Positions 2,131 through 52,464 of a stretch of 64,000 nucleotides of DNA are shown here, piece by piece. The stretch lies in the NCBI GenBank assembly GCA_000004985.1, contig GG738845.1. One strand, written 5' to 3'. A program made the translations under genes and the position numbers. The notes under the pieces are model-generated. The model ran no database searches. It was not told the DNA's origin and saw only the letters and a program-made list of their open reading frames with translations. This DNA is from Naegleria gruberi. Its lineage: Eukaryota. The stretch's first letter is position 1. Every line of letters begins with the position of its first letter.

Positions 2131-4713
2131 TTAGGACAAGGTGAAATTACCTGTAGTACAGACAAGCCCTATATCCACTTTTTGATCTTTCTTGACTTTC
2201 CTCAGTCCAGTATCTAGTGGAGGTTTTAATTTTGGTTTTTTCTTATAGCTGGCATTCTCCTCCTTGTGATGTGATTCTTCTGCCGAATTGTTGGGCAGAT
2301 TTGTGGAAATGGAAAGCATCTCACTCATGGAAGCTGGTTGTTTTGTCAGATTAAGATTTTTTACAGCATCGAAAGGATTAACAGTACTAAAATCATACGT
2401 ATCTCTGGGTGCTTCATCTATTTCACTCATAGCACTTCTGTTCAATCCAGAACTTGAGGTATTCTCTTCCAGAACCATTTTTTGGAATTCTGTTACTAGA
2501 CTGTTTCCCTTACTCTTATTTTTCCTTGTTTGATCATGTTGTGAATAATTCTCAGAATTTTCCTTTACATTTGGAGAATATGGGTTAAATAATTTCAGCT
2601 TTGTTTCTGAAAAAGTGGTTGCTAGTGCATATAAACTTTTCTTTGGTTTTGGAATTTTCTTTTTCTGTTTGGACAGTTCCTTTTCAATCATTACATCTTG
2701 AAGATTCCACTTTTTAGTTTGGAGGGTTGGTTCTGATTGCTTCTTGGATGGAGCTGATTGTGGTCTTGAAATTTTTGCTTGTTGCAAAGTTTCTGATATT
2801 TCTGAATTGGAAACAATTGATTGTCTTCTCTCACAATGTTGAGAATTACTGTCATTTTTGTTGTTTGATTTTTGATTACCAAATTTCACTTTTCTGCTTA
2901 CATCATTAGAAAACAGAGTACTATTAAGATGCTCAATTATGTTTAGTTGTTTCAAAATATCTTCCTTATTCTTTTCATGATATTCTAATAAATTAGAGGA
3001 AGTTCTTGTGGTATCAACTAAATTAGGACTAGCCGATCGCAGGGTTGAGTTACTGGGAGTAAGAGAGTTCTTATTTTTTGGTGGAATTTGTGCAGCTTCT
3101 ATCTCAGGTGCTATTCTTGCTGGATGAACGGTGTTCAATACTGCTTGGAGTTGGAATCTTGTCAATCTCTTTCTATGTTCATAAATTCCCTTTAAATTTG
3201 CTTCTTTTTTTCGTGCTTTTTCTTGAGCAATCATAACCTTGTACTTTTTTTTAAGTGTCCACTTTATCTTCACTTTATCCTTATTATTAATTTCAGAAAG
3301 TAGATTGAACATTTGGCATAATATTGAATTTTCGTTAAATAAATCTGGAGATATTCCTTTTTGTTTTGTTAGTTCTCGTTTTGTTGAGCTTCTTCTGTAT
3401 TCTATTGTTGGAGGAATTAACTTTGAAGAGCTTGAAGTCGATGCCACCAACAAGTTATTCGAACTTACACTTCCCAGTATTTTTTCAACCCTTAGCTGAG
3501 AACCACACCTTTGTAATGAGCTCTTCATTGATTCAATTCTTTTTTTAAGGTTTGCTGTGCCTAGCTTTAGTTTATCCCATGTGGTCAAACTTGAAGTTTG
3601 ACTAGAAATTAATTTTTCGCTATCAACTCTTTTAGGAGGCATTTCAGGAAAAGAGTCAATATTCTTCTTATTTGAATTGTAAGTTTTCATACCTTCATAT
3701 TTCACCTTCTTTCTGTCTCTGACATACTCCACATTGTTTGAATTATCAATAAAAATTTTAAGAGTTGATTTCTTCCTTGTCTGATTTTCTATCAATTGCT
3801 CAACCTGCTTTTCTAATGAGTTATTGTTAAAAAACGGCTGCGTTGAGCCTGGTCTAGGATTTTCAGGTTTTCTTTGGGTTGAATAGAGAGTATCCATAGC
3901 TTTCTCCAAATTTTTAATAACATTATTCGATTTAGGTTCTGGAGTATTTGTAATTGGCCTTGAAAGAGGAGCTGATCCTGATCTCTTTGATGTTAAAGTC
4001 CTACTGAAATGAATTCTTTGGTTGATGGCTTTTTGAAGATTGGATTGATTATTTTTGGTTGCTGGATTTGGTTGTTTCAAGGTTCTAAGGGAAGGAGTTG
4101 GTCTTTTTGTTTTGTTATTTACATTATCATAATTTACAGTATTTGAGTTATTTTCAAAAATTGGAATTTTGAATTCGTCTTTGAGCAGGTCTTTGATTAG
4201 TTTGTCTTGTATTTCTTCTAAATGACTACAAGGTAAGGCTTGAGATTGGTCCACAGTACTAAAAGGTTGTGAGTTAGATTCTTTCCCAATTATAGGAGTT
4301 TCAACTTGGTGTAAGCAAATTGGACTTTCCGGCTCTATTACCACTCGGTACGATAGTCTTGAATCGGATGGTTGGTTTACTCTAGGTGATGGGTTTATGG
4401 ATGATGCACCTGAGGAAAGATCATCAAATAAACTGTTTTCAATATCATCAAATTCCATATTTCCATATCGTTGATTTACTCCTCTATGTACAAATAATTT
4501 GTTATGGTTATGATGATGTGGCTGATGAAATAATTTAATGTTATCTATAATAATAAACTCGGAGGAACAACCTGTTGAAGGTTGGTTAATTATGGGAATT
4601 GGTGATTGTGGAGGTATCCCAATCACAATACTATCAAAATCTCCAGTTGGATAAGGACAATCACTAAAACCCCCTCCTTCTCTGAATGCATTTATGGAGG
4701 GGTTTAATGACAT
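2131..4713 (-). CDS. Large Ser/Asn/Lys-rich low-complexity protein of unknown function
   Basis: Long uninterrupted minus-strand ORF. The track start at 4740 is GTG, and the first ATG is at 4713 (MSLNPSINAF..). No recognisable domain. Compositionally biased (S/N/K/T). Confidence 0.4.
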   Translation of the reverse strand: MSLNPSINAFREGGGFSDCPYPTGDFDSIVIGIPPQSPIPIINQPSTGCSSEFIIIDNIKLFHQPHHHNHNKLFVHRGVNQRYGNMEFDDIENSLFDDLSSGASSINPSPRVNQPSDSRLSYRVVIEPESPICLHQVETPIIGKESNSQPFSTVDQSQALPCSHLEEIQDKLIKDLLKDEFKIPIFENNSNTVNYDNVNNKTKRPTPSLRTLKQPNPATKNNQSNLQKAINQRIHFSRTLTSKRSGSAPLSRPITNTPEPKSNNVIKNLEKAMDTLYSTQRKPENPRPGSTQPFFNNNSLEKQVEQLIENQTRKKSTLKIFIDNSNNVEYVRDRKKVKYEGMKTYNSNKKNIDSFPEMPPKRVDSEKLISSQTSSLTTWDKLKLGTANLKKRIESMKSSLQRCGSQLRVEKILGSVSSNNLLVASTSSSSKLIPPTIEYRRSSTKRELTKQKGISPDLFNENSILCQMFNLLSEINNKDKVKIKWTLKKKYKVMIAQEKARKKEANLKGIYEHRKRLTRFQLQAVLNTVHPARIAPEIEAAQIPPKNKNSLTPSNSTLRSASPNLVDTTRTSSNLLEYHEKNKEDILKQLNIIEHLNSTLFSNDVSRKVKFGNQKSNNKNDSNSQHCERRQSIVSNSEISETLQQAKISRPQSAPSKKQSEPTLQTKKWNLQDVMIEKELSKQKKKIPKPKKSLYALATTFSETKLKLFNPYSPNVKENSENYSQHDQTRKNKSKGNSLVTEFQKMVLEENTSSSGLNRSAMSEIDEAPRDTYDFSTVNPFDAVKNLNLTKQPASMSEMLSISTNLPNNSAEESHHKEENASYKKKPKLKPPLDTGLRKVKKDQKVDIGLVCTTGNFTLS

Positions 4714-4778
4714 CTTTTTTTTAATGTTTTTTACAAACACAAAAACAGTTTTAATTTTGGCGCCAAAATTTAATTACA

Positions 4779-6812
4779 TCAATTTTTCTGTGCTTCAAAA
4801 ACAAGAGACAATAATACCTTTACCCATTCATCTCTCTTTTCAATTTCATGTTCAATAATTTCAAAGTTTAAAATTACAGTAGGGGAAATAATAGAGAAGG
4901 TAAGTTGCTCTCTCTTGATTTCTCCATATTCTATTAAGGTTTTTGTTTGGAATCCTGGAAGAATATCTACTATATCTTTTAGGTTCAAAACAATCTCTTC
5001 ACCATTCATCATGTTTAGTACAAGCACCTTCCTGTCTGACTTTAGAGATATATTGGATCTTCTTAGAGGATTTGCCATCTCTCCTGTTTCTTCAATTAGA
5101 ACGAACAACTTTTCAGCGTCTAACTTGTCAAGATATGGAATTCTATTATCTTGTTTTCTTTTAAGATTATGATGGAATGGTGAAGACAAAACAGTTTGAT
5201 AACCAACTCGTAAGATTTCATGATTTGATTGTATCTCTTCAAATTTCTTCAAATTTGGAATAACTGAATCAGAGTATGATGATATAATTTTCTTTTTTGT
5301 TTCTAACCATTTGTATTCCAAGTCCTTTTCTTTGAGATCGTTTTTGAGTTTTAATAACTCGTTAACATTGATAACTTTAGGAGGTTCTGGTACATCAGAA
5401 AGTAAATTTTCAAACCTAGATTTGACTAAGTATTCATCATTAAGAGGCCTTTTTGGTTTTGAACTTTCCAAACTTTGTACTTCATATGGATAATCATCAT
5501 ATGGATTGCTATCTATCATTTCAATTATATCTGAAACATCTTCTCCAATGAGAGAGGATACTTTGTGAATGGCTTTCTTTAAAATTTCCTCCTTTGTCTT
5601 GTTGAGCTTTAAGATTCTCATCATTTCTACATATTCATACAATTTTTCATCTTGGCTTTGCTTCTTTTGTTCTGAAAGGAATTGGTTGATTACCTTTTCA
5701 CTAATACATTGATCTTTAAGTGATTCTGATCCAATAATATTATTAAATGATGGAGTGAAACCTTTAGCCATTTCAATAAATTGGTTAGTCATGTCAATTT
5801 CAGCTTTAACTTTTCTCAGCATGAAATGTTCAGCAGTTCCATAACGATTTTGCTTTTTCTTTTGAAGTTGTTTCTTCTTCTCTTCGTCTGATACTGATTT
5901 TCTCTTTGCAGAATTATTGTTAAATTCTTCTAAATCTTGCTCGTGCTCTTTTAAAATTTTTTGCTCATGCTGGGAAAGGAGCTTTTCAGCTTGTTTAAGG
6001 AAATAATCTTCTGCCAACTTTTGAGCTTCTAACATGGCTTCCAGTTTGTAAATATCCTCAACCAAGGAGTCATGCTCCCTATATTTTTCATCCAAAGAAG
6101 GTCCACCTATTTCAGAATCTCTAGATTTTCTTAATTGTTCAAAACTTTCTCTAGACTCATTGTATTTTTGTTTTGTTTCTTGCAACTTTACATCTACAGA
6201 TTGAATTTTTTTTTCCAGTTCTTCCTCTTCCTTTCTGTATTGGTCTTTTACTTTAGCTAACTCGGCTTCCCATTTTTCAACTTCTTTTTTAAGCTCGGCT
6301 TCTTTTTCCAAGTATTCTTTTTCTGTTGTGACTAACTGCTTCGTTTTTTGATTGAATTCTTTCTTTTTCTCTCTCTGAGTTTCAAGTGCTTGTTCTTTTC
6401 TTTTTCTAAGGGTATCAATTTCAGTGTGAAGATTTTCAATTTTAACTAGCATGTCCCTCTTCTTTTGTTGAAGATTATCAAACTCTTGTTGTGCTTGCGC
6501 AAGTTCTTTACAGCTATTTTTATATTGATCCTTAATTTCAGTAGAATTTTTAGACAATTCCTTCTCTTTTCTTTTCCTATCGGCAATATTTTCCTTTGCA
6601 ATCTCAATCTCGGCTGTTAATTCTTTTTCAATTTTATCATTTTCGTTGAGCTCTTTCTGTAGTAAGGACTGATGTTTTTTCATCTCATAAATCTCCTTTT
6701 CTTGAAGATCAAATTCATTCTTAACTTGTATCTTCTTCATTTCTAGCTCCTTTTTCAACTCTTCCAGCGTGGTAGCTTGGGAGCCAAAAGATTGAAGCAT
6801 ATCTACAGACAT
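4779..6812 (-). CDS. Coiled-coil protein with a C-terminal PH-like domain
   Basis: 677-aa ORF with a true ATG at 6812. The N-terminal ~350 aa are heptad-rich E/K/Q coiled coil. The C-terminal ~120 aa (..RKVLVLNMMNGEEIVLNLKD...EHEIEKRDEWVKVLLSLVFEA) resemble a PH domain with a terminal Trp-containing helix. Confidence 0.5.
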   Translation of the reverse strand: MSVDMLQSFGSQATTLEELKKELEMKKIQVKNEFDLQEKEIYEMKKHQSLLQKELNENDKIEKELTAEIEIAKENIADRKRKEKELSKNSTEIKDQYKNSCKELAQAQQEFDNLQQKKRDMLVKIENLHTEIDTLRKRKEQALETQREKKKEFNQKTKQLVTTEKEYLEKEAELKKEVEKWEAELAKVKDQYRKEEEELEKKIQSVDVKLQETKQKYNESRESFEQLRKSRDSEIGGPSLDEKYREHDSLVEDIYKLEAMLEAQKLAEDYFLKQAEKLLSQHEQKILKEHEQDLEEFNNNSAKRKSVSDEEKKKQLQKKKQNRYGTAEHFMLRKVKAEIDMTNQFIEMAKGFTPSFNNIIGSESLKDQCISEKVINQFLSEQKKQSQDEKLYEYVEMMRILKLNKTKEEILKKAIHKVSSLIGEDVSDIIEMIDSNPYDDYPYEVQSLESSKPKRPLNDEYLVKSRFENLLSDVPEPPKVINVNELLKLKNDLKEKDLEYKWLETKKKIISSYSDSVIPNLKKFEEIQSNHEILRVGYQTVLSSPFHHNLKRKQDNRIPYLDKLDAEKLFVLIEETGEMANPLRRSNISLKSDRKVLVLNMMNGEEIVLNLKDIVDILPGFQTKTLIEYGEIKREQLTFSIISPTVILNFEIIEHEIEKRDEWVKVLLSLVFEAQKN

Positions 6813-10222: not shown

Positions 10223-12209
10223 TTAGTAATTTGTTCCTGTACACAAAGAGCATCCAAGAATACATTCCTCCCCGTTATCAGCATGATTTCCACCTGTTGG
10301 GCATTTACCAACACCAAGACATTTTGGAAGTTGATTTTTTGGGGTTTTTGTTAGAGCCTGAGTTTCTACTTGTTTTCTGTGGCATTTGTCACAAAAATGG
10401 GTTGTTCCCCAACAAAACCAAGTGGCCATATTACTGTTCTCAATGTTATTGATAGCATCTTTGATTTTAAACTTACCAACAGAATTTACACTTGTACGAA
10501 ATAAACTCAGCTCCATGCACTTCACAGACACCTTCTTGTCTAACCTTTTTAGCACAACAGGAACCACAAACAAGCTCCTCTGGATTGAAATTATCATCCT
10601 CATTCTGTTCTCCACATTGAATCTTTCCTCCGTAGTATGGACTTTTGCATTCATGGCACATGTAGAATGAAAAAGAGTTCATTGCATACTCTAAAGGTTT
10701 GTTATAATATTTTCCAGATGGAGACGTAATTTCCTCAATCTTTAAAAGACCCTCTTGCTCTAGTTTGACCAGTGATTTTTTTTCTATTATCGATTTGAGT
10801 GCTCTTACTTGGGTTGTTTCATCTTTTAGAGCTGGATGATGGATAGAAGTGTTGCATAGAGGACATTTCTCAAATGAAAAGCTCACTCTTGCCCCATGCC
10901 ATTTCTTTTCCAGCTTTTTCTTTATGCATTCAAAATGGAAAATATGTCCACAATTAAGCTGTATGCAAGGAGCATGATTCAAGGAGCTAATCCAACAAAT
11001 ATTGCAATAGTCATCACCACTTTGGCAAGTATCTCTTGAAGAGCAATTCAAACAGGGAAGGTGCTCAAATTCATCCTTAATTCCACAACAATGATGACCA
11101 CATGTATGCTTGTGATTGCAAGAATTCAGAGCTTTTTGCTTGCATTCTTCATTCTCACAAATATCACCATTGCAATTAATATCAATAGATGAATCACAAT
11201 ATCTACACCTTTTCGAAGAAAGGTATTCTAAAAATGTGTCACAAGTAAATCCTTCGTGATATGGAGATTTTAAGCATTTTGAGCAAAATTCTAAGGAGCA
11301 AACTCTACATCTAAATCTGAACTCTTCTTTGTGAATGTCATCTTCTTTGATTGGCCTTTTTTGAGATTCAAGTTCAGAAATGATTTCCTCTCTCTTCATG
11401 TGGATTCTTTCAACAATATTTTTACATGAAGAGTTTGGACAAGTAATAAAAGTGTTTCCGGTGTCAGCATTCTTCAATGCTCTCCTCAATTCCATATCTA
11501 ATAACTTTGAGTATTCTTTTTCAGAAAGAACCGAGGAAATTAATTGAGACGGTACTGTCTGACAGCATCCATTTGCTGGGCAAAGGATCGACAATTCATC
11601 AAAGTCCAAAGAGTCATCAGTTTCGTCCCCAAAGGAAAGAAAATACTTTCTCAAACATTCTTCACAAAATACATGAACACAACTCTCCATAAAGAATGAC
11701 ATGTCTATGGTCAAGTATTTACCACAACAATCACATTTCATTTTCTCCTCGTTTTCCAATTGTTTTTTATGCTCCTTAAGCTCTACCAAGTATATTTGCC
11801 TAGCCATCTGTTCATCCTTTCTTTGCTGATCCGGTGATGTAGTGCTAAATAAAAAAGCATCATAATAGGAAGTAAAATCTTTAGGCGAGTAAAGTTTTGG
11901 TTTTTTCTTACTTTGAGGAGTTAAGCAAGAAACCCCAGTAGACCTCAACATGTTCCTTAAATTAAGGCATTCATCAATATGTTGTTCAATATTTCTTGAA
12001 GAAAATTCTTTTTCACACACAGGGCAAGTAACCAGGGAATTTCTGGGTGTATTTAATTCCTCTCTGTTAGGAGTTGAGGGAGGAGAAAAAGAATAAAAAC
12101 ACTCTCCATCTGTGAAGCAGGTTGTGCTGGAGGTGTCATCCACATTATCATTAAGCATTTTTTTTGAAACCTTGTCCCTTAAAGGACATATTTGGCGGGC
12201 AATAATCAT
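10223..12209 (-). CDS. Multi-zinc-finger E3 ubiquitin ligase with a UBZ4-type finger plus RING/IBR-like fingers. Two exons, approximately complement(join(10223..10433,10477..12209))
   Basis: UBZ4-like CPVCEKEFSSRNIEQHIDECL. RING-like CDCCGKYL..CVHVFCEECLRKYF and CNICW..CGHIFHFECIKKKL..CPLCN, with several further Cys/His clusters. Track ORF 10473..12257 starts at TTG, and candidate ATGs are at 12209 and 12158. It ends at a TAA that is part of a minus-strand GTAAGT donor. Splicing to the AACAG acceptor (a ~43-nt intron) joins in frame to ORF 10223..10654 (..[18 protein letters not shown]..), which continues the Cys-rich domain. Confidence 0.65.
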
Positions 12210-12245
12210 CAAAAATAATTTTATTTTCCAATCAATCAAAAAAAA

Positions 12246-13190
12246 ATGAACAAACAAGCAGACAAAGAATTACAGCCAAATAACCTACCTGATGATTCGG
12301 AGAGTAAAAGAGAGCCAAAAACCCGAGACACCATGATTGCGGGTGCACTGGCTAGATGTGGTGCTGCCACAATAATGTATCCAATAGATGTTTGTAAAAC
12401 TAGAATGCAATTTCAGAGACGTTCCGCTCACTTTCATACAGTATACAGAAACAGTTTCCATTGTTTGTCTAGTATGATGAAAACAGAAAGATTTGGAATA
12501 TATAGAGGATTATCACTGCGATTGTTTTATATTGGTCCAGGTGCTGCAATTACATTTACAGCTTATGAAGGATATAAAAAACATGCAGAAAAAGCCAAAC
12601 AAAAAGGGGAAAGTATTCTTACATCTGGAGCCTTATATTCTCTAATTATTGGTGGATTGGGAAGAGCAGTCGAGTCAGGAATTAAAACTCCTTTCAACAT
12701 TATAAAACAACAATTGCAAGTTGAGGGACAATTGACAACCCAGTTCAACCGAGGATTGGTAAAATCAGTGAAACATATTATGGAAACAAAAGGAGTTGGT
12801 GGATTATTTGTTGGATATTCTGTTACACTTTGTAGAGATTTACCCTTCTCATTTCTATATTTTGCAAGTTATGAATTTATCAAAAACAAATCAGAAAATT
12901 ATTCCATTCCACTTCTCAAAGACTATGCTGCTGTTAGAGGTGCTATTGCTGGAAGTTTTGCATCTGTTTGTACTTTACCTTTTGATGTGATCAAAACAAG
13001 GATACAAACACAACACAAAATTTCATCCGATGCACACTATTCAGGTTATAAGGATGCTGTCTCTAAAATATTTAAACAAGAGGGTTTTGCTGGATTTTTT
13101 AGAGGTATAACTCCACGATTAATTTATACAATCCCGTCCACTAGTATTACATTCCATCTCTATGAAGTATTAAAAAATTATTTAAAATAA
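12246..13190 (+). CDS. Mitochondrial carrier family (SLC25) protein
   Basis: 314 aa with three carrier repeats carrying Px[DE]xx[KR]xR-type signatures (PIDVCKTRMQ, PFNIIKQQLQ, PFDVIKTRIQ). ATG at 12246 sits in an AAAAAAATG context. Confidence 0.85.
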   Translation: MNKQADKELQPNNLPDDSESKREPKTRDTMIAGALARCGAATIMYPIDVCKTRMQFQRRSAHFHTVYRNSFHCLSSMMKTERFGIYRGLSLRLFYIGPGAAITFTAYEGYKKHAEKAKQKGESILTSGALYSLIIGGLGRAVESGIKTPFNIIKQQLQVEGQLTTQFNRGLVKSVKHIMETKGVGGLFVGYSVTLCRDLPFSFLYFASYEFIKNKSENYSIPLLKDYAAVRGAIAGSFASVCTLPFDVIKTRIQTQHKISSDAHYSGYKDAVSKIFKQEGFAGFFRGITPRLIYTIPSTSITFHLYEVLKNYLK

Positions 13191-13622
13191 TTAACTACGG
13201 GTAGAGGATTGTACCAATCTCTTATACCTTTCACTTTGTTGTTCCGATAAGAATTTAGTTCTCCTATAAAATAACACCCCAATAACTATGATTAAAACAA
13301 ATATTGTACATTCAAAAATAATTAAATTTTGAACAGTAAAAGGAGTGTATATGATATCTGGCCTACAGCTTTCTTTTCTTTTGGTTTTTTCTTTTGGATC
13401 ATCTTTTTTGGTACACATGATCAAGTGGTAGTATTTGGTTGCATCACAATACTGATGCTTTAAATCATCCATTGTACAAGGAATACATTCCGATATTGTT
13501 TCACAAATAAATTGATGTCTAGGTATGGAGTGTGTTGATGAAGTTTCAGGTTGGGGATTTGCTAAAAGGAAAGGACAACAAATAAAAAGGATGGTAAGTG
13601 AGAGGAAAAAGTTTTTGATCAT
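13191..13622 (-). CDS. Small type-I membrane protein with a signal peptide, Cys-rich ectodomain and single TM
   Basis: 143 aa starting MIKNFFLSLTILFICCPFLLA. The ectodomain has multiple Cys, followed by a hydrophobic stretch (IIFECTIFVLIIVIGVLFY) and a basic tail. Its stop codon abuts the stop of the carrier gene on the other strand. Confidence 0.45.
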   Translation of the reverse strand: MIKNFFLSLTILFICCPFLLANPQPETSSTHSIPRHQFICETISECIPCTMDDLKHQYCDATKYYHLIMCTKKDDPKEKTKRKESCRPDIIYTPFTVQNLIIFECTIFVLIIVIGVLFYRRTKFLSEQQSERYKRLVQSSTRS

Positions 13623-13710
13623 TTTTTTTGTTCTATTAAATTTAAATCATCATAGTTGGCGCCCTTTATGTACATTATAAAAATTGTTGGCGCTCAAAAA
13701 ATCAAAAAAA

Positions 13711-15731
13711 ATGACTGACAATATGAGGTTCTCCTCGCTTACCTCACAATTTGTGCAGAAGCATTTGGAGGCTGAAACGTTATTTAAAGAAAGACTGAAA
13801 GAGTGCGATGATCGGATTCGAAAATTTGAAGCCACAATACAAGAATTAAAAGGGGAACTTGAAAAAAAGGAGAAAAATTATGAACAACTAAGAAACGATT
13901 GCGAGTATAATTATTTATTGGTTAAGGAGAGAGACCACGAATTGGCTACTGTTGAGAATGAGGCTTTAAAATTGAACGAACATAATTCAAGACTGTAAGT
14001 AAATAGATACACCTTTGTTTATGTTGTCACAGTAAACAAGAGCTAGAATCGTTACAAAAGGAAAAACTTGTGTTAGAAACAGAAAAAAAGAAGGAGAGTG
14101 CAAGAAATAATGAAATAGAGGTCTATTACCAGGAAAAGATGCAAGAGCTAAGAAATGATCAAGACCTTATAAAAAAAGAGTTAGAAGAGAAAAACCAAAT
14201 GATAATTAAAGAATTCGAAGTTACATTGAGAGATCAGCAAAGGCAATATGAATCAAAGTATGAATTATTGGAAAAGCAAAGAATTTCCCTAGAAAATGAT
14301 TTCAAAAACTCCTTGAATGAAAAAGATGATCAAATTAGAAAATTATTGCAACAGATAAGGGAAAAAGAACTCATAGCAAACAAATATATTTCTGAAAATG
14401 ATTCTATCAAGAGGAATTATTCATCAAAGATAAAATTACTGGAGGAGGAGAAACAATCCTTGGATCAAACCATCAATGAATTGATATTAAATCATAAGAA
14501 TCAGTTACAAGAGTTACAAAGAGAGTCATCCAAACAGCAGCAGCAATTGGTGGCATCTTATGAGCCTACTCTGCAAAGATTGAAACAAGATATTGAAGAA
14601 TCTCAAAATGTAATTAAAACGCAGAAAGAGAATATTAAACTTTATCAAAGACAATCAGACGACAATGAAAAACAGAGATTATTTGACATTAACTCACTAA
14701 GAAATGAGTATGAGGAAAAAATTAGAAAAAGAGAAAAAGACTACGAACAGTTGAAAGAAAAAGAATGGGAACTAACTCAAAAACTAGAGAGCAAGGAAAA
14801 TATTATCACTACTTTAAAAAAGAACTGCGAAGAAAATGCTAAAGATATGGAAAAACTTCAAGAGGATATTAAACAGGCCTTCGAAAGAGAAAATACTACA
14901 AAGAGAGAAGTGTTAAGATTAAATCTACAAATAGAACACGAAAAGGAAGCTAAAGTGAAAGAGATTTCAGATAAGCAAGATCAAATTCTACAAATATTCA
15001 GGAAGGAATTAGACGAAGCCAACGTGATAGTTGAAGACAAGGAAAGACAAATTGATGAATTAAGAAAAGAAATAATGATGCTAAATACTGAACTCTCCAT
15101 AGCCAACACTCTAAAATCAACCCCATACAACAAGCTTAAACCACAACAAAAATCGAATCAAAAATACCAACAAATGTTATCACAGGTGGAAGATGAGCTC
15201 GGTTTGGGTTCAATAGATTCTGTATCTTCCCCTTCTTCAATTGATGGCTTATCTGTAATTAATAAGGACGATTATAAGAATTCAATAGAAAATCATAATT
15301 ATTTGGAAAATAGCATGACATCTCCAATTGACAAACTCAAACTTAGCAGTGTGCACATTGATCAAATCACTAAAATGAACTCTCTAATGACAGAATTAAG
15401 ACTTGATCTGGAAAGTCAAAAAGAAAAGGTATTCAGAGCTGAAGAGAAACTGATCGATATGGCTACAGAAAATAAGATTCTGAGATCCAAGCTAAAGGAG
15501 GCTGTGAAAGATTTAAAACGAGTGTACAAAGAGAAAGAACAACTCACAGATATTAGTAACATGTTAAAATCTGAGCTGACAAAAACAAAAGAAGCCCTCT
15601 TTTATGCAAGAGAAGCAGCTGTATTAGTTAGTGTTGAAAAACCTGCCTCTCCCAAACCATCAAATGATAATCTAGGTGTAAATGGTAAATCAAAAACTAT
15701 CTCACAAAGAAAAAAGAAGCTAGGATATTAA
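13711..15731 (+). CDS. Coiled-coil protein. Two exons, approximately join(13711..13994,14033..15731)
   Basis: Track ORF 13684..13998 (TTG start; first ATG at 13711) ends at the TAA inside a GTAAGT donor. A 38-nt intron ending ..GTCACAG joins in frame to ORF 14070..15731. The product is about 650 aa of heptad-rich E/K/Q/L sequence. Confidence 0.6.
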
Positions 15732-31000: not shown

Positions 31001-31580
31001 TATTGACAAGCAACGTTTCATCTCTGCCTCAAGTTTAATTCAACCAAAAGTTGAAGATAATATGGAAGAAAGTGAGGATGAAGCAAATGAAACCGATAAG
31101 GGAAATGTTGCATTTGAGGAATTAGATGAAATGGAAAGCGAAGACGAAGATGAGAAGAAACCTGCTTCTAAAGACATTTTGGATTTATTTGAAAAACCAA
31201 TAGAAACAGACGAGAGATTTAAAACTGCTTCCAAGAAAAGAAAACAAATTAGTAAGGACGCCAAGGAAGAAGAGCCAGAAAATAAGAAGAGAAAAGATGA
31301 TCCAAAGAGAAAGGAGTTCCTCAAGCAAGCTATTTCTAACAGTGAATTTAAAATATCAGGAATTTCTGAAGAAGATTTAGAAAAGGGTGTTGAGGAGAGT
31401 GGAGGTAAGGGAGCTCTTGCTTCTGGTTCTGTCATTGTAGGAACACAAAAAGAGGAGCAAAAAAAGGAAGTGAAAAAGTATATGATGAAGAGTGAAAAGG
31501 AAATCAAAGAAATTGAAAAGAAATACCAAAACCAATTATTCAAGAAGGGAGGAAAGAAGAAGAGAGATGTTAAACATTAA
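28073..31580 (+). CDS. NAT10: RNA cytidine acetyltransferase NAT10/Kre33. Four exons, approximately join(28073..28353,28401..29772,29815..30144,30186..31580)
   Basis: Conserved NAT10 N-terminus (..IKTLIENCVKKRHRSFFVVVGNRAREQLVHLHYMLAKAR..), helicase/ATPase region (..ASRGRGKSAALGLAIA..LLVIDEAAAIP..) and acetyltransferase core (..IATHPEYKR|MGYGTRALELL..). There is a basic K/E-rich tail. Three ~41-47-nt introns are GTAAGT..TTTCAG, GTAAGT..TCTGTAG and GTATGT..AAAAAG. Each donor overlaps the stop of a track ORF. Confidence 0.9.
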
Positions 31581-31584
31581 ATAA

Positions 31585-34500
31585 TTATTCTTTTGTACTG
31601 TTTGGTCTTGGTGGCTTAAGGATTGGATTTAGCGTACTAGCTGTTTTTCTAATGACTCTTCGAACCGGAATTATGGGTTCTTCAGGCGGTTCGGATGGGG
31701 TTGGTTCTGCAATCCTAACTTTTATCTTTTTAATATCTGTGCTGTCTTGGGCTTCTGTTGTTGATAGAAATGTAGGATTTTGGGTTGGCTTTGTGGCCAC
31801 TGCTCTTTTTCTTCTGGTTGACTGATCAGATTCAGGTTCCATTGTGCTTCTCAAAGGTTGAGTTTGAATTGTGGATTGATTTTGTGAAAGTGGTTTGGGC
31901 ATACATGACATTCTTCTTGTTGGTGCTCTTTGTTGTCTGACTCCTTGAATTGGGTTTTTAAACCCCACAAGTTGTTCTTTTGTTTTTTCCTTAAATGTTT
32001 CAATAACACTTTCCTTAATAGATTGTAGCTGCAAAGAAAATTGTTTGTTAGAAGAATTTCCATAATCAATATCTTCTGAAATATCAATCAATTTTCCTCT
32101 AATTTTAGAAAAGATGGTTGCACTTTCTTCCGAATCAAAATAGGACAAACATTCATCAAAAAAGCTGATCTCGATATCCAATTGAAGTATTCCATTAGCA
32201 CAAGTGTCGTCTGGAAGAAGCATACAACAATCATTAAAATTTTTAAGAAGCTCTTTTTTAAGTTCCCTACAGACAAATGTTGGAAGATCAGCCCTAGCCT
32301 TCATGTTAGCTTCGTGGTGAACTAGTGCTAGTCCAAGAAGAGTTTCTATCATATAGCTTCTAATTGTTGTAGGTGTAGAGGCAGTTGCCCACCTGAATCC
32401 TGGATCGATAATACCTTTGCGAAGAGTGCTGGAGAGAGCAATAGCTTTTCGTCTTAGCCATTTCTTCAAAATTAAATTCGATAACTTGTCGAAAGTATTG
32501 TACATATCCCTTACTAGCGAGGAGTTACTGAACTTTTCTTTTGGCTTTGTTTGAATTGGTGTCATATTCTCAATATCCAAATCATCAATGTCAATATCAT
32601 CAAGGTTGTCATCTATTATTTCTAAATCCTCCTTACAAAGAATTTTCTCATCGAATGTATGTAGTATTTTTTCTAAGGCACCTCCCATATTGATCAATTC
32701 ATATATGTTTCTCAATAATATCATTAGTTTCTTGTCTGGGTTAAGTCCACTATTAGAATATTGAGACAGGATTGCTGAGAAAGTTGTGCTTTTGCTTGTT
32801 TTCATTGAGTTAAGAATATCTTTTTCATCAATATCCTTTGATAATTCAAATAATGTGTCGCCAAATGACAACAATGTCTCCACGAACATTTTTTTAATTT
32901 CTGAAAAATTCTGTTTGAATTGTAACAAAATAAAACACTCACAGTGTACTTACATCTCCTGTTGTTGTTACTATTGTCAAGATATTAAGCAACTCATATA
33001 TGTGTTTCATAAATAATAATGGGAGTTGTGTCGTGTTGCTCTCTTTTACAATTATCCAATCCTCCTTATCATGTAATATTCTTATCTCTTCCATTGTTCT
33101 TTCACAATATTTGGTGATTGTCTCAGTTTTCAATTCTTGAGCAAAGTTAAAGAAAGGCACCGAAAATTTTGTTTTGATTTTCAATTCAGATATTGAATCC
33201 AACTTGGTAACAAAGTAATTCAAACTCTCAATAATAAATGACTGATTGCACTCGATACAATCTAACTTTTCAAATAATTCTCTACATAAAACTGAAAAAA
33301 GGTTGCAAATTTCAGTAAAAATTGACTCAATTTCAGCCTCTTTTTGTATTTTCTTTTCCCTATCTTTTAATGTAGCCAAGTCTGAAAAACCTCTTTTTGA
33401 CTTTTTTTGTTGGTTTGGTTCAAATTTATCGTCTAAACTGTATTTGGAAAACTTCCAAATTATTTGAAGGTTATCATATAAAATATCACACAACTTTTTT
33501 ACAGACTCTGCAACCAATAATTGGTAATTGGTATCAACCTTCTTTGTTTGATTTGTTTCAAGGGAGTCAAAAGACCACATGATTTCCTCTTCCAATAATA
33601 GGTGCTCAATGTCCATTCCTTCTGCTTGGTCATAAAAATCCGTTTCCCCTCTAAAAGATTTACCACTCTTAAGTTTAATAGAAGCATTTTTTTCTTCAAT
33701 AGAAGAGAAAATGTCTTGCATTTTGTCAATTAATGAATTAAATTGGTAACTAATAAAAAATTTGATTGGATCAACTTGTTTTGCATCCAATAAATACAGA
33801 TATCCAACGTATCTTTCCTTTACTTCAATGGAAACGCTTGAATCTTTAAGTTTAGAATAGAGTTCTGTTTTGACCTCATCCACCTGGCTCATTATTTGTT
33901 CTCTCAAGGATATCAAAACCTTAGAAGAGGTATTTCCCTTGATAAAATACTTTGCTTTTTTGTAGTCGAGGATAATTTTCTTATATTCTTTCTATTGAAA
34001 CTGAAACAATTTTTTCTGTCAAAAGTACTTACTCTTTCTCTATTTTGTTTAATGTCGGAAGGAATAATAAATAGAAATTTGAGTTTGTCTACGATATTTA
34101 CCATTGATCTAATTTCTTCTCCCATTTGTTGTGTTTTTATCATTGGCGAAAATAAGTTCTTACAGTATGATTGCAAATTATCAAATGATTGTTCCAAACC
34201 AGCAACTGCATTGTCATTAAATATATTTCTTCCTTCTCTATCGCCTATTAAAAACTCTTCCAACTTGTCTTTGAGGTAAATATATTTTTCCAGATTATCA
34301 TGCACAAATTGTCTCAGTTTGTTAGATTGAATTTCTTTTCTCCTAGTACAAGTTTTTTTAGCGTTCTTCAGTGCTGAAAAGCTAAATTTAGCATGAAGAT
34401 TACCTAAATATTTTGTAGGAATAAAACCATCCTCATATGGATTAAGGCCATGCTTAAGTTTTGAGGGTTGAAGATTTCTGAACAACGTAATCAATCGGAA

Positions 34501-34887: not shown

Positions 34888-37800
34888 TCAGAAAACTCTT
34901 GTTGGAAAGTACGTGNNNNNNNNNNNNNNNNNNNNNNNNNNNNNNNNNNNNNNNNNNNNNNNNNNGTAAATTCTCAAGGTACTATTAAGAGATTGATCAC
35001 CTTCCATAGCAAACCATTGGCTTCTGTTCTGGTAGTCAATTTGAAATCTTCCAGTTATATGTCCACTATTAATCATTTGAACACTCATTCTGTAAACATC
35101 ACCAACCATCAAAGACCCAAAATTACAGGAATTTGGAAACACTTGAATATTACTCAGACCTGGTTGAGGAGAGGGTGATGATATGGTTTCTCTTGTAATT
35201 GAAGATTTTTGCATATCACTCCTAGATGGAAGTTTCTTTTCCATGGTTTTTTGAGGTTGGTTTGGTGTTTTCATGGAGGATGTTTTCACCTTGATTTTGG
35301 AAGGATCATGCAGAGATTTGTATTCATCATTTGGAACGGCTTCAGCAGTTTTGATGAATGATTTCTTGAACCAAACCGATTTGCTAACATTTTCCACAGA
35401 ATAAAAACTTGGATCTTGAGAGTTTCCTTTTCTAGTCGATTCGGTTTTGGTATCGTAATTGTCTCCTTCGTTGTGGACTGGTAAATAATTGGGTTCTATA
35501 TTTTCGTTCTCTGAATACTCTTCATTAGTTTCTACACTTGCCTCTTCATTGGATTGTTCTGGAAGGCTTTCATTCTTTTCCTTTTTTTCCTTCTTTGGAA
35601 TTCCTAACACCAACGTTTTCCAAACTTCTAAAGCTTCAGGTTCGTGCCAGTATTTAGGAGTATTGCTATTTTTCTTTTCCTGCTTGTACTCATTAATGTT
35701 TAGCCCTCTATCTTTTTCTATTTCATCTTTTTTAACCACTTGAATGACTGTAAAATCCTCAGGATTCTGTTCCTCCTCTATTGGTGCTTCCTTTTCAAAG
35801 ATGTTATTTTCGGAGAATATAGTTGTTAATTCATTCTTGATTTCTTCTTCCTTTTGCTTTTGGTCTTCACTCCTGATATCACCCTCTTCAGAATTTTCTT
35901 TTGAATATCCTTCTTTTCTTACTCTCCATTCTTTCCATCGATTGAATTTATCCCTTAATTTAGATCTATCATCTATTGACAGAGGTCTATACTTGTTGAA
36001 ATGCCTGTGATAGTATAGAGAAGGATCAGCCGTTTTCAGTCTGCCAAGAGGAATGACAGCTTTTGGTAGGGAGTAATAATTTTCGGGGCTTTCCAAATAT
36101 TTAGTTCCTTGATCGTATTTAGTATAGATATGAACAGAAGAAACACTTCTAAACTCTCCAACCATATCTTCAGAAATATTAATCTTCTCAGGATTCGATC
36201 TTGATGCATCAGTAAATGGCGCAATAAAGCTTTCTGGAAGATACTCAAAAGCATATGAACCTTTCATGGATAACTCAAAAAGTCGAGGTTGAATTAAGAA
36301 TTTGTGACTGTTGTCCTTTGGAATTTCTCCAATAACAGAAACAGGAGGTAATCCAATTTTGTTCTTTTTGAAATAATTGATAAGAGACTGAGAAAGTGCA
36401 TATGTTTCCATGTCTTCTTGAGTACCATCTGTTTCCTCAGCCGTGATACCATTTGACTCATCTTGTTCTGGTGGTATTGAGGAGCTCTTAGGTCTTTTAC
36501 TTCTGGAGACTTTTGGTGTACATGCTCTGCTTGCTTTTCTTTCTTCAATAAGCATTCTTTCGTTGTGAATATCCTTTTGATTTTTTTCACTTTCTTGATA
36601 GAATTTGATCATTGATCTACCTGTTCCTGTGACTACAAATTCATGGCCAACAATATCAATCATTTTCATTCCTCCATTCAAATAATCGAAAGAGTACATT
36701 CCAAAATAATACTTGGAGGACTTTTTTTGGAATCTTTCTTTGTTGATTGAGGTAAAGGATAAACTGGATGGCTCTAAATCAACAAAATTTTTTTCTAAAT
36801 CAATAGTAATCATATGACCTAGTTTGGAAAGGGTAAATTGCTTTCTGTCTCTGTAGGTAAATAAAGATTGGTCTGGAAGTTCATACAAAATCTTATCTTT
36901 GAGAATTTTAACACTTGCAAAACCGCTTCTTTCGATAAGGGTATAAAAATCATTAACATGAATAAACTCATCTTCATCTTCTTCGTCATCAACAAAAACT
37001 TGACCATGAACAACTGGACATCTCCAAATACGGAAGCCATCAGAATATTGAACCAGTTGAGAACTGTCACTGAAAATCACTTTCATAACTAAATCTTCTC
37101 TTACATGGACTTCTGCATCCTTCCATGCATCAACATTTTTAACATATTTAACAGTGTCTAAATTCAAAATAGTTCCATCTAATAGCTCTACACACCTTGC
37201 ACCTGTCGGGGCAGTCTTTAAGCATGAACCGTCAGAATTAAAGTGATGAATTTCGCTGCTTGGAAATAATGTTTGCGAAATATCCCCTTCAAATCTCCTT
37301 ATTATTGCTCCGTCTTTTGTTACAGTTAGAGAAAGCTCTCTTACAAGCTTCTTTTCAACTGTATCAGTAGTAGAGTTCCATATTTCAATTAATTCTTCTA
37401 CAGGATGTAAACTAATAGTCATCTTGTCAGTAGAATTTCTATCTAATCCTTTAAACCCAGTACCAAAAACCTTCTTCTTAGATTTTAATTGTGAGGGATA
37501 GAATTGATGGATAGATCCATCTTGCATTAAGCGTATTTGAAGGCCGTTATTGCAACTGAAGTCAACCTCTGTCGATTTAGCATCAACTTGGTCTTGTAAA
37601 AATGCTATTAGACTAGAATCATCCTCAAAAGAACAGGAAAAATATGACTTTCTTTTCAACATATTATGAGGATTATCCAAACTGTTAATGGTATTTTTAA
37701 ATCCAAAAACAAGCCCATCCTTTTCAACAGTACAAGAAATGCTCTTGTCTGTACAATATTCCGACTTTAGATAAATGATTGAACCATCACTTGGGTAAAG

Positions 37801-48690: not shown

Positions 48691-48701
48691 TATTTGTGGT
48701 T

Positions 48702-51056
48702 TTATTGCTTTGATTTTGGAGTCAAATCATAGTCAACCAAATCTATAAAGGATTTGATGTATTCATCTACATTTTCTTCATGTTTTCTTTCTTTGATCAA
48801 TCTTGCTGCTCCAGCAACCTTACTCTTGTAAACAATAATATCTGATGGAGATAGTTTAAATCCAGTTTCTTCGAACATTTTCTTTAGGAATTCGCGAGCT
48901 TTTTCCACATATCCTTCATCTACTAATCTGAAAATCATATGTTTGTATGCTTGATAAGTTGGTTGGACACCATTTTGTTTCATTTCATCAAATAAGAGTA
49001 GTGCACTTTCTGTCCTCTTCAATCTACAGTACATCCTTACTAAAAGCGTATATGCTATTCCTGTTGGTTGTAGATTATGTTCTGTGTACTTATTTTTGCA
49101 CAATTCCAAGGCTTTTTCCACTCTGAGAGCATTGGTAAATACTCCCAATAACGAATTGAGTGTATATTCGCTGATTGGAAGATTAGTTTCTTTCATTTTT
49201 TCATAAACAGCAAGAGCATCTGAAATGTTTTGGTTTTGTTCTTTTGTGAGGTTCTTGTTGCCTTTCTGTTGTTGAGCAATACTAAAACAGCTAAGGACTG
49301 AATTGTAAGTGTGCTCAGTTGGCTTAATACCTATCTCTTTCATTTTCAAAAGAACCTTTTTCATTCTGGCAACACTTCCATCATCTGCACATGCATTGAT
49401 GAGAGAATTAATAGTATAAATATCTGGTTTGTAACCGTACAGCTCCATTTGTTCAGCTAACTCAAACACTCTGTGACGAAGTTCTTTTCTTTTGGAATAT
49501 GCTTTGATAAGAGTATTGAATGTTACTTCTGTAGGTTCTATCATCATTTGTTGCTCCAATCTCCTGAAAAGCATCATGGCTCTTTCTGCTTGGCCTCTCA
49601 TAGCACATGCATTTATCATTGTTGTAACAGTTACTTCATCATGAGGAATACCATAAACCATACCCATAGCCATGTAATGATTCCAAGCTCTCTCTAAATC
49701 TCCTTTCTTTATACAACCTTGAATAAGGTCAGTATGAATAACAGTATCTGTTGGTAAGTTGTGAGAACGCATTAATTCTACCATTTGGAAAGCTTCATCT
49801 ACCTTTCCAGCCCTTACCATTGCATGAACTACTATACTGTAAGATACAATTGTAGGACTAATGTGGTATTCACTTTGCATTTCTCTCAAGTAACCATAGG
49901 CCTTCTTGTAATCTCCTCTAACAGCACAAGCTGTCATTACAGCATTGTATGTGTATTCAGAGGGTAATAATAGATCATTTTCATCAATTTCTGTTTGTCC
50001 ACTTAAAATTGCAGCCTTTCTCTTCTCCAATATATTTGTCAATATTTGGGGAGAAGGTCCTAATGATTTAATTTTCTCCAATGTTTGCTCGGCTAATTCC
50101 AATTTTCCTTGCATAGCTTGGCATCGTATAAGATAGTCAAAATTCTTAATTGTTAAAGGTTTGTTGTCGAAATATTTGTGAATATCTGTTTCCTCAGAGA
50201 GCATTTTCATTTTGTCTAATTGAACTAGAGTACTAGTTGGTGTGAGTAGTTTAGTAGTTAACTGTGACCAGTTTGGGTCATCTCGTAAATAAATATCCAT
50301 ATGACCCTCGGTAGTTTCTTCAAATCTTAATCTTTCTCTAATATTTTCTGGAATAATTTTACCTTGTCTCCAAAGTTTTACAAGTCTTGGAGATTTGAAA
50401 GGTACTAAACTTTCTGGAGACTCTGGATTGAATTTGGTAGTATCTAACTGCCTCTCAGCGATTGATTTTTCTGAAGACTTGATTGACTCATTTTGATAAA
50501 ACCCTTTTCTATTTGAAAGGGATCTTGGAGGGGCTTCAATCATTTGATTTTCAGATTCTGCTTCAATGATAGGTGACTGGATTTTTTCTCTAATTATCTG
50601 TTCATCTCTTTCCTTACTCTTTTGAATCTTGTTTCTTCTTTGTTGTTCTTTTCTATTGGAAGCCTTTTTTTCAGATTCCATAGAACTGAATTCTTCCATA
50701 GCATTTTCCAAGGCCTCTCGTTGATGTTGTGATAATTTTAATGCATTTGGATCTACTCCTAGATGCTTTTTTGTTAATTGTTCATCATTTAACAAATTTC
50801 TATTCGGAACAACTTTTTGTGAAAGAGTTACTAGGTTATCTTTTTTTCTAGCATAGACTGTTTTTGCTGGTTTTACCGGATTGTTATGATTAGTCTTATT
50901 GGAAGAATATAATCCGTTGCTCAATTTTAAATTAATATTATAAAATTGTAATCCCGAGTAGTCATCGGTCTTTAGAATATTCTCTTTTTGCAAACTTTTC
51001 AAATTTATTTTTGAAATTCTTTTTTGTACTGTTTTGCCTGTGATGAGTTTTTTCAT
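48702..51056 (-). CDS. Pentatricopeptide-repeat (PPR) protein, probably mitochondrial RNA-binding
   Basis: 784 aa. The C-terminal two thirds consist of tandem ~35-aa helical repeats with the PPR pattern (YNAVMTACAVRGDYKKAYGYLREMQSEYHISPTIVSYSIVVHAMVRAGKVDEAFQMVELM..TVIHTDLIQGCIKKGDLERAWNHY..). The N-terminal region is basic and S-rich. Confidence 0.75.
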   Translation of the reverse strand: MKKLITGKTVQKRISKINLKSLQKENILKTDDYSGLQFYNINLKLSNGLYSSNKTNHNNPVKPAKTVYARKKDNLVTLSQKVVPNRNLLNDEQLTKKHLGVDPNALKLSQHQREALENAMEEFSSMESEKKASNRKEQQRRNKIQKSKERDEQIIREKIQSPIIEAESENQMIEAPPRSLSNRKGFYQNESIKSSEKSIAERQLDTTKFNPESPESLVPFKSPRLVKLWRQGKIIPENIRERLRFEETTEGHMDIYLRDDPNWSQLTTKLLTPTSTLVQLDKMKMLSEETDIHKYFDNKPLTIKNFDYLIRCQAMQGKLELAEQTLEKIKSLGPSPQILTNILEKRKAAILSGQTEIDENDLLLPSEYTYNAVMTACAVRGDYKKAYGYLREMQSEYHISPTIVSYSIVVHAMVRAGKVDEAFQMVELMRSHNLPTDTVIHTDLIQGCIKKGDLERAWNHYMAMGMVYGIPHDEVTVTTMINACAMRGQAERAMMLFRRLEQQMMIEPTEVTFNTLIKAYSKRKELRHRVFELAEQMELYGYKPDIYTINSLINACADDGSVARMKKVLLKMKEIGIKPTEHTYNSVLSCFSIAQQQKGNKNLTKEQNQNISDALAVYEKMKETNLPISEYTLNSLLGVFTNALRVEKALELCKNKYTEHNLQPTGIAYTLLVRMYCRLKRTESALLLFDEMKQNGVQPTYQAYKHMIFRLVDEGYVEKAREFLKKMFEETGFKLSPSDIIVYKSKVAGAARLIKERKHEENVDEYIKSFIDLVDYDLTPKSKQ

Positions 51057-51075: not shown

Positions 51076-52464
51076 ATGAAATCGTTAAAGAAAAGCTCGC
51101 TGCTACGATTAGCTTCAACATCGGCTTTCTTTTCAGCTTCAACAAGTCATCATATTTTTCAATCAAAATTCTATTCCAGTTCTCAATACGATGTCAAATC
51201 TTCTGGAATTGCAAAGGAAAAGGTGGAGAAGAAGTTGAGTAAAATTGAAAGACTCTTTTCCAAGAATACATCATCCAAGAAGAAGAATTATCAAACAGTA
51301 GAGGCACAAACCAAAGCTCCGAGCCCTCTTGCAACTCCACTTCCTCCATCAAGCGGTACATCAACAAAATCAAAACAAAAACTTCCAGAAAATGAAATGA
51401 TAAATAGTTTAATTAGTGGTTCTGGTGTAAATTTAACACCAGAAGAAATTGAAAAAGCAAAGGACACCCTAAACCCTTCCAAAAAGCAATCCTCCATAAC
51501 ATCTCCAATTTTAGGAAACAGATCGTTTTCAGAAGATGAAGTAGATGATGCCTGGATGGAACAAATGAAAGGCCCTTTTTATTATCGAACAATAATTAGA
51601 TTAATTGAGAAGCAGAGATATCTTTCCGAACAAGATAGAAATTCTCTAATAAGCTATGTCAAAAAGGAATTCAGGGATAGAAGTAAAAATGTAGAAGCTC
51701 AATATCAAATAGCAGATAACTTTGTTCACATAATGAGGGCAAAAGATTTAAAAAGTGCTCAAATTACTACTGATGCTTTGGATAATAATCAATTGGATGA
51801 ATCAAAAGAATTGACCTATTGGAATGAATACTACAAACAACATGGATATGTAGAGGAATGGTATTGTGATTGGGATGTAATTAAAAGCTATCTTCCAGAA
51901 GCAATTCTAAAGTTAAAAACCAAACCAAACAAGGAGTCTTTACAAATTTTAGATATTGGTTGCGGCTTGTCAACAGTTTCATTACATTTAACAGGTCATA
52001 TGGAAAAGCAGCTTTGCTCAGTTACATCAATTGACATTAGTAATATGTTGATAGCCCTGATGTCTGATTCGTATGCTGATATTGCTGATATAATTTCTTT
52101 CAAACAAATGGATGTTAGAGATTTGTCTTTTGAGGACAATACTTTTGATTTTATTTTTGATAAGGCAACTTTTGATAGCATACTGTCTTTTGATTCTTCA
52201 ACCATTTCAGATCTCACCTCCTATGAATCTGAAGTTTATAGGACCCTAAAACCTGGTGGTGTTTTAATGCTTTGTAGTGTAAATCCTTTTGAGGGCATTG
52301 AAGGGTTCTTCTCTGGACAGACCTGGTCAAGCATAAAATTAGCAGGAAGTAAAAACCTATTGGAAGACCACACTACCAATAATAGAAGTTTACAACTAGC
52401 AGATGACAGTGTGCTTGGAAATGCATTCCTACATTTTTATCATATCAAAAAGCCAACCGAATAA
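51076..52464 (+). CDS. Class I SAM-dependent methyltransferase (METTL12/13-ECE2-like lysine MTase family) with a presequence-like N-terminus
   Basis: C-terminal motif I ILDIGCGLSTVSL, the 'DKATFDS' (DKGTLDA-like) motif and LKPGGVLML. The N-terminus MKSLKKSSLLRLASTSAFFSASTSHHIFQSKFYSS is Ser/Arg/hydrophobic-rich like a mitochondrial targeting peptide. Confidence 0.65.
   Translation: MKSLKKSSLLRLASTSAFFSASTSHHIFQSKFYSSSQYDVKSSGIAKEKVEKKLSKIERLFSKNTSSKKKNYQTVEAQTKAPSPLATPLPPSSGTSTKSKQKLPENEMINSLISGSGVNLTPEEIEKAKDTLNPSKKQSSITSPILGNRSFSEDEVDDAWMEQMKGPFYYRTIIRLIEKQRYLSEQDRNSLISYVKKEFRDRSKNVEAQYQIADNFVHIMRAKDLKSAQITTDALDNNQLDESKELTYWNEYYKQHGYVEEWYCDWDVIKSYLPEAILKLKTKPNKESLQILDIGCGLSTVSLHLTGHMEKQLCSVTSIDISNMLIALMSDSYADIADIISFKQMDVRDLSFEDNTFDFIFDKATFDSILSFDSSTISDLTSYESEVYRTLKPGGVLMLCSVNPFEGIEGFFSGQTWSSIKLAGSKNLLEDHTTNNRSLQLADDSVLGNAFLHFYHIKKPTE

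Follow-up and report, generated by a model that had tools for sequence, protein, structure and literature searches.

Abutting stop codons of a mitochondrial carrier gene and a JTB-family gene represent the tight end of convergent gene packing in Naegleria gruberi

Two convergent genes of Naegleria gruberi, one for a mitochondrial carrier and one for a protein of the JTB family, lie so close together that their stop codons abut, leaving no base in between. Our analysis indicates that this arrangement is, with high probability, an ordinary if extreme product of the compaction of this genome, involving two real and conserved genes, whose transcripts would be cleaved past the stops and would overlap at their tails. 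The abutting stops are the tight end of the normal gene packing of N. gruberi and no special device.

The carrier gene, an open reading frame (ORF) of 314 codons, occupies positions 12246..13190 on the plus strand of the window, i.e., the whole 64-kb stretch of DNA that was analyzed, and ends with the TAA at 13188..13190. The JTB-family gene, encoding 143 amino acids, occupies 13191..13622 on the minus strand, and its TAA, read as TTA on the plus strand, lies at 13191..13193. Accordingly, positions 13185..13196 read AAA TAA/TTA ACT, where the slash marks the junction, and the wider view of 13173-13202 includes ...AAT TAT TTA AAA TAA/TTA ACT ACG GGT... An earlier note on this DNA had claimed that there are zero bases between the two stops, which is borne out by the mechanically derived ORF list, in which the two frames adjoin exactly. 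The same note pointed to the palindromic hexamer TAATTA as encoding both stops. This is correct, although TAATTA is simply TAA plus its own reverse complement, which results automatically from two TAA stops, so that the palindrome adds no extra information. The junction is unlikely to be a sequencing or assembly artefact because an independently assembled metagenome contig from ENA (L001, 2042 nt), which is 99.66% identical to positions 12210-14254 of the window, carries the same junction, base for base. No significant hairpin or larger inverted repeat was detected at the junction, with folding z-scores of -0.72 and +0.50; the sole inverted repeat there is an A/T-only 8-nt palindrome at 13176-13192, which is centred at 13184, i.e., off the junction. 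A hairpin or bidirectional terminator at this site was considered and rejected given that the palindrome is off-centre and the folding energies are no better than those of shuffled sequences.

The junction is included in an A/T-only tract of 27 nt (13168..13194) that spans the last codons of the carrier gene (TTA AAA AAT TAT TTA AAA, translated as L K N Y L K), the two stop codons and a single additional base. The 64 kb contain just 14 such pure A/T runs of at least 18 nt, this one among them, and the others, in our reading against the ORF map, are located mostly in spacers or at gene ends. Thus, the composition of 13168-13194 resembles that of intergenic 3'-end regions of N. gruberi, yet every base of the tract is coding. 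In N. fowleri and N. lovaniensis, the A/T content of the corresponding carrier codons is lower. As a general observation, the window, which is nuclear DNA of N. gruberi, has a G+C content of about 33%, is densely populated with eukaryotic genes and is interrupted by two stretches of N, as is typical for draft scaffolds.

The plus-strand ORF had been described in the earlier note as a mitochondrial carrier, and it is a genuine one: the protein matches the three repeats of the Pfam family Mito_carr (PF00153) with an E-value of 7.6e-64 and a score of 211.9 bits (cutoff 22.3), and the last of the 3 matched stretches ends at residue 313 of 314. The carrier signature P-x-[DE]-x-x-[KR]-x-[KR] at the end of odd-numbered helices can be read from the translation, with PIDVCKTR in repeat 1 and PFDVIKTR in repeat 3 fitting the consensus, and a degenerate version, PFNIIKQQ, in repeat 2. 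The ORF corresponds to the N. gruberi protein NAEGRDRAFT_29313 (XP_002683047.1), encoded on a 1.56-Mb scaffold, with 100% identity over 91% of the ORF; the reference model comprises 285 amino acids compared to the 314 of the ORF and begins at an internal methionine. Orthologues from N. lovaniensis, N. fowleri and one metagenomic relative are 72-74% identical to this SLC25-type protein, with dN/dS values of about 0.10-0.13. The best matches among named carriers, labelled as Fe(2+) transporter or thiamine pyrophosphate carrier, are just 33-34% identical.

The small minus-strand ORF, which the earlier note had presented as a membrane-protein gene, likewise proves to be real and conserved. It matches Pfam family PF05439 (JTB) with a score of 29.8 bits, above the gathering score of 22.1, over residues 41-135 of the protein and positions 19-108 of the 110 in the profile, and all 4 aligned sequences (the window protein, P0002, P0003 and P0004) match this family, with the best E-value of 6e-8. 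Full-length orthologues are found in N. lovaniensis (P0002), N. fowleri (P0003) and two metagenomic Naegleria-like genomes (P0004 from L005, and L006:1225-1656). The dN/dS ratio, taken where synonymous changes have not reached saturation, is 0.10-0.19; by these sequence measures, the ORF is a protein-coding gene under purifying selection. Human JTB is a small (~145 aa) type I membrane protein that consists of a signal sequence, a Cys-rich ectodomain, one transmembrane helix and a short cytoplasmic tail. By eye, the 143-aa window protein shows the same architecture: a hydrophobic, signal-like N-terminus, a Cys-rich ectodomain, a single predicted transmembrane helix and a short basic tail. In the alignment, the signal-like N-terminus is variable, whereas six cysteines (C40, C46, C49, C59, C70 and C86) and a CRPDIIYTP block are invariant; inspection of the same alignment puts the hydrophobic stretch roughly between residues 100 and 119, with an invariant YRRTK and a conserved tail after it. 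A search of the PDB for a JTB chain, using the shallow profile of the 4 Naegleria sequences, yielded none at E<=1, the sole match being MRAP, at chance level.

Among the protein-database matches of the JTB ORF, we found no N. gruberi entry, and therefore, this gene appears to be missing from the reference annotation. A look-up of the exact protein returned genomic or metagenomic contigs only, and the exact sequence was found solely in an ENA metagenome contig. Exact-match scans of metagenome contigs for the 3' end of either gene gave no match. The lack of a protein entry is an observation that would favor the view that the minus-strand ORF is not a gene at all, in which case there would be no abutting pair; the same would apply if the junction were a sequence error. 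We regard either possibility as exceedingly improbable. Indeed, the PF05439 score above the cutoff, the full-length orthologues with conserved cysteines, transmembrane segment and tail, the dN/dS of 0.10-0.19 and the conserved gene order all argue against a spurious ORF, and the identical junction in an independent assembly argues against an error, so that on these grounds both can be considered effectively excluded. The apparent gap in the annotation may be the reason why the abutting arrangement went unrecorded. Our literature searches returned nothing relevant on JTB in Naegleria or on Naegleria gene spacing, and no mention of NAEGRDRAFT_29313, FDP41_005770 or C9374_011291 in the literature searched.

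The convergent orientation of the two genes is not peculiar to N. gruberi. The pair is kept in four other Naegleria or Naegleria-like genomes, its two stops being separated by 31 nt in N. fowleri, 56 nt in L006, 75 nt in L005 and 95 nt in N. lovaniensis, against 0 nt in N. gruberi, which alone among the five genomes lacks a spacer. The carrier orthologue of Willaertia magna has another convergent partner, a gene of the tubulin-tyrosine-ligase family, across a 14-nt gap, and JTB is not adjacent. The JTB/carrier pairing is a Naegleria synteny block with a drifting spacer length.

How the spacer was lost in N. gruberi can be traced only in hints. In a MAFFT alignment, the N. gruberi sequence from ATTAACTAC to GGGTAGAGGA, which is antisense to the JTB tail, aligned to the codons that encode the carrier tail in N. 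fowleri and N. lovaniensis, hinting that a premature carrier stop might have turned old carrier-tail DNA into JTB codons. However, the JTB tails are rich in serine and threonine, and the AGT and ACT codons are mutual reverse complements, so that the similarity to the carrier tail may be coincidental. The length of the carrier tail differs among the relatives, being short in Willaertia and L006. At the other side of the junction, the JTB protein has an arginine at the C-terminus in 4 of the 5 proteins and is one residue longer in N. gruberi, where it ends in TRS, which is compatible with the loss of an older stop and an extension by one codon.

Within the window, the junction has close counterparts. 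The ORF map contains eight convergent pairs, with stop-to-stop gaps of 0, 4, 11, 36, 56, 116, 118 and 178 nt, a distribution that represents only these eight pairs of a mechanical map of one 64-kb window. Most of the partners are Pfam-recognised genes: the 4-nt pair (31580/31585) consists of a NAT10-like acetyltransferase gene and a Sec5 gene, and a partner in the 11-nt pair (48690/48702) encodes a PPR protein. TAA is the stop codon at 27 of the 35 putative gene ends in the window. Given that the gaps run from 0 through 4 and 11 to 178 nt, the zero gap is the end of a continuum, and the abutting arrangement does not exceed chance expectation in the N. gruberi genome. With 3 of the 8 pairs separated by no more than 11 nt, a few per cent of convergent pairs can be expected at any given very small gap; by crude extrapolation, there are probably dozens of abutting convergent pairs genome-wide. 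The unusualness implied in the earlier note was thus overstated, near-zero convergent spacers being routine in this window.

The zero gap has immediate consequences for the signals of 3'-end formation. [quoted passage not shown] AAUAAA overlaps about 11-13% of the stops ("dual-use" stops), the median UTR of these genes being 22 nt, and AUUAAA is a weaker signal that is common but unused inside coding sequences (PMC11529991). In the window, AAUAAA or AUUAAA wrapped around the stop (AA-TAA-A or AT-TAA-A) was found at 10 of the 35 putative gene ends, among which are both genes of the 36-nt pair and one gene from each of the pairs with gaps of 4 and 11 nt. At the carrier/JTB junction, by contrast, such a hexamer is impossible: because the stops abut, the base 3' of each is T, the complement of the last A of the partner stop. 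Indeed, the canonical dual-use hexamer is absent at both genes, the corresponding sequences being AAUAAU (13186-13191) for the carrier and GUUAAU/UAAUUA for JTB.

On the carrier strand, the hexamer scan identified an AUUAAA within the gene's own coding sequence (13169..13174) that ends 13 nt before the stop and is a candidate poly(A) signal, which could bring about cleavage at or a few nucleotides after the stop. A second candidate is the AAUAAU that covers the stop in the dual-use register (13186..13191), its sixth base being barred from A by the partner stop; AAUAAU overlaps the stop in a like register at two other members of tight pairs, 31585(-) and 48690(+). The next canonical hexamers for the carrier begin only 101 and 131 nt past the stop, within the JTB coding sequence. 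On the JTB strand, the scan from 12900 to 13500 detected neither AAUAAA nor AUUAAA, which implies a non-canonical signal for this gene. Two weak candidates can be proposed, namely, an AAUAAU followed by a U-run (13177..13182, minus strand) that starts 9 nt past the JTB stop and is antisense to carrier codons, and, alternatively, UGUAUAAA (13123..13130, minus strand), in which a UGUA upstream-element motif is fused to the variant hexamer UAUAAA and which begins 61 nt past the stop, antisense to the last transmembrane helix of the carrier.

It had been claimed that the 3' UTRs and the poly(A) signals of both genes must lie inside the coding sequence of the partner. The first part stands, as any UTR of at least one base is antisense to the partner; the second part is no such necessity, as the best candidate signal of the carrier, AUUAAA, is found in its own codons. 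The DNA-level precondition for a tail-to-tail overlap of the transcripts is in place, considering that the 0-nt gap is smaller than the sum of two typical 3' UTRs, with a median of 39 nt each.

The same AUUAAA (13169-13174) opens an alternative, a variant of the explanation favored here, in which cleavage directed by this hexamer takes place at the UAA or inside this codon, the stop is followed, or completed, by the poly(A) tail, and the carrier mRNA is devoid of a 3' UTR and stays out of JTB, so that only the JTB transcript overlaps its partner. The spacing would suit such a scheme, given that the hexamer ends 13 nt before the stop and N. gruberi signals are positioned 15-20 nt upstream of cleavage (PMC11529991), whereas the next canonical hexamers, 101 and 131 nt past the stop, lie deep in JTB. 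However, this AUUAAA is so near the stop that cleavage 15-20 nt downstream could fall on or before it, and cleavage even a few nucleotides early would result in a non-stop mRNA; moreover, AUUAAA is the weaker of the two signals and commonly goes unused in N. gruberi coding sequences (PMC11529991). We consider this scheme unlikely.

The explanation we favor, in which compaction brought the genes together and both transcripts extend past their stops, involves the following steps. The carrier and JTB would have been convergent neighbours since before the divergence of the sampled Naegleria species, and on the branch leading to N. gruberi, the intervening spacer would have dwindled to nothing. Transcription presumably starts, for each gene, at a short divergent promoter of its own, and cleavage and polyadenylation presumably occur a few tens of nucleotides beyond each stop, so that the two mRNAs would overlap tail-to-tail, with each 3' UTR antisense to the last codons of the other gene. 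Because the usual stop-wrapped hexamer is excluded, the processing signals of both genes would be embedded in coding sequence. For the carrier, we infer AUUAAA at 13169-13174 and/or the AAUAAU across the stop, which would result in a very short 3' UTR. For JTB, the signal would be a non-canonical A/U-rich hexamer in the antisense of the C-terminal carrier codons, and the UTR, roughly 30-85 nt long, would be antisense to the sequence for the last helix of the carrier. The 27-nt A/T-only tract might then be a former 3'-end region that was absorbed into codons and now serves both transcripts.

Upstream of JTB, the divergent spacer between its start codon (13622) and that of the following gene (13711) is only 88 nt long and is likely a shared promoter region. 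This spacer contains two E2F-like TTGGCGC motifs on the plus strand (13656-13662 and 13687-13693); the motif has 7 matches in the window compared to 0.74 expected. Another possibility is that the tail-to-tail overlap has been selected for mutual regulation, through transcriptional interference or dsRNA/RNAi, coupling a putatively cell-cycle-driven JTB to a mitochondrial carrier. Apart from the promoter motifs, such coupling could draw on the retention of the convergent pairing in five Naegleria or Naegleria-like genomes, in several of which overlap is likely, given that the gaps range from 0 to 95 nt and 3' UTRs typically measure about 39 nt (PMC11529991). Synteny among congeners is, however, expected from descent alone, the gap varies between 0 and 95 nt, the carrier of the outgroup Willaertia has a different partner at 14 nt, and unrelated gene pairs are equally tight elsewhere in the window. 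Selected antisense coupling appears, accordingly, quite improbable. The same low probability applies to the broader proposition that signals within coding sequence and an obligatory sense-antisense overlap are put to biological use here, be it as reciprocal regulation of JTB and the carrier or as a carrier mRNA with a zero-length 3' UTR, in which the stop is followed by poly(A).

Comparison with other systems helps to place the junction. Overlapping transcription in compacted genomes, those of microsporidia and nucleomorphs, was reportedly described by Williams et al. in PNAS in 2005. The likeness is that shrunken spacers force the transcripts of neighbours to overlap, with signals inside the neighbouring coding sequence. 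However, these are highly reduced genomes of parasites or endosymbionts, whereas the amoeboflagellate N. gruberi is free-living and encodes a large number of genes, and, unlike in those cases, the overlap of the carrier and JTB transcripts is deduced from the DNA alone. In yeast, plants and animals, convergent pairs with overlapping 3' UTRs form natural antisense transcripts. The carrier and JTB share with these pairs the tail-to-tail topology and the potential for antisense pairing of the 3' ends, but the coding sequences of the yeast, plant and animal genes are usually tens to hundreds of nucleotides apart, so that only the UTRs overlap, whereas any UTR of the carrier or JTB overlaps the partner coding sequence from the first base. 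Finally, in Blastocystis nuclear genes and animal mitochondrial mRNAs, the poly(A) tail completes the stop or comes immediately after it. A similar, purely hypothetical outcome might ensue if the AUUAAA of the carrier directed cleavage at the UAA; by contrast with those systems, the genomic TAA of the carrier is complete already.

The closest precedent comes from N. gruberi itself. Ultrashort 3' UTRs and dual-use stops have been reported in this organism, Giardia and other protists (PMC11529991), that is, in the same organism and under the same pressure; the difference is that at the TAA/TTA junction the canonical dual-use hexamer is barred in both genes. We found no discussion of convergent gene spacing in the sections of PMC11529991 that were consulted. 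Convergent genes with overlapping 3' ends in compact genomes are known, and so are the ultrashort UTRs of N. gruberi (PMC11529991). The new twists seem small: neither strand can carry the canonical dual-use signal, and one of the partners is seemingly unannotated.

The present findings leave the picture of compact protist genomes unchanged, overlapping 3' ends being already established there. For N. gruberi, they indicate that the reference annotation apparently misses a conserved JTB-family gene and contains a carrier model that starts at an internal methionine. Furthermore, the junction provides a clean test locus for the choice of cleavage and polyadenylation sites in Naegleria, one that includes neither non-coding sequence nor a stop-embedded AAUAAA.

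The reference protein set of N. gruberi appears to lack the JTB-family gene (13191-13622, minus strand): the only exact match to the protein was in a metagenome contig from ENA, and the homology matches included no N. gruberi entry for it. The start codon of its convergent partner, the mitochondrial carrier, is modeled in two ways. The reference model XP_002683047.1, at 285 aa, lacks 29 of the residues in the 314-aa open reading frame (ORF) (window 12246-12333, plus strand), which is consistent with translation starting at the internal Met30. All 314 aa are retained in the metagenome gene call (P0040), and the orthologues of the carrier likewise carry N-terminal extensions, but these are poorly conserved.

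Two further convergent pairs in the window are very tightly packed. In one, a 4-nt gap (31578-31587; TAAataaTTA) separates the stops of a NAT10-like gene and its Sec5 partner; in the other, 11 nt (48688-48704) separate those of a 337-aa ORF without assigned identity and a gene for a PPR protein. In each of these pairs, a canonical poly(A) hexamer, AAUAAA or AUUAAA, is found around the stop of one gene and the non-canonical variant AAUAAU at the stop of the other. The Willaertia magna orthologue of the carrier faces a TTL-family gene tail to tail across a 14-nt gap (L007, 4934-4949); thus, tight convergent packing reaches past Naegleria within Heterolobosea.

Genes in other orientations are also closely spaced. 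On the minus strand, the stop of gene 4779..6812 lies only 38 nt from the ATG of the next gene, 2131..4740 (4740-4779). This spacer contains both an AUUAAA and the palindromic E2F-like site, and one gene's promoter must therefore occupy the same few dozen bases as the other gene's 3′ end. Provided that the first ATG is the true start in each case, the divergent genes for a PPR protein (48702..51056, minus strand) and a methyltransferase (51076..52464, plus strand) have their ATGs only 19 nt apart (51056-51076), with all 19 nt contained within a single 23-nt A/T run. Inspection of the sequence by eye also revealed a candidate 38-nt GTAAGT...CAG intron (13995-14032), which would link ORF 13711..13994 in frame to 14033..15731, yielding a long coiled-coil protein without a Pfam match. 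Two 50-nt runs of N (34916-34965 and 46242-46291), which represent scaffold gaps, fall inside or next to long ORFs, and the gene models near them are therefore incomplete.

E2F-like motifs are strongly enriched in the 64-kb window, with 7 matches to TTGGCGC against 0.74 expected and 5 matches to TTTSGCGC against 0.37 expected. Such motifs were located at 373-384, 4755-4768, 13656-13662, 13687-13693 and 62097-62104, two of the motifs in the window being the palindrome TTTTGGCGCCAAAA, and those whose surroundings were inspected lie in very short inter-ORF spacers. Two copies are present in the 88-nt spacer from which the JTB-family gene and its coiled-coil neighbor diverge, and the related sequence TTTGGCGGG is present at 12192-12200, between a RING/IBR gene and the carrier. 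In Naegleria, the E2F-like motif may serve as a promoter element linked to the cell cycle.
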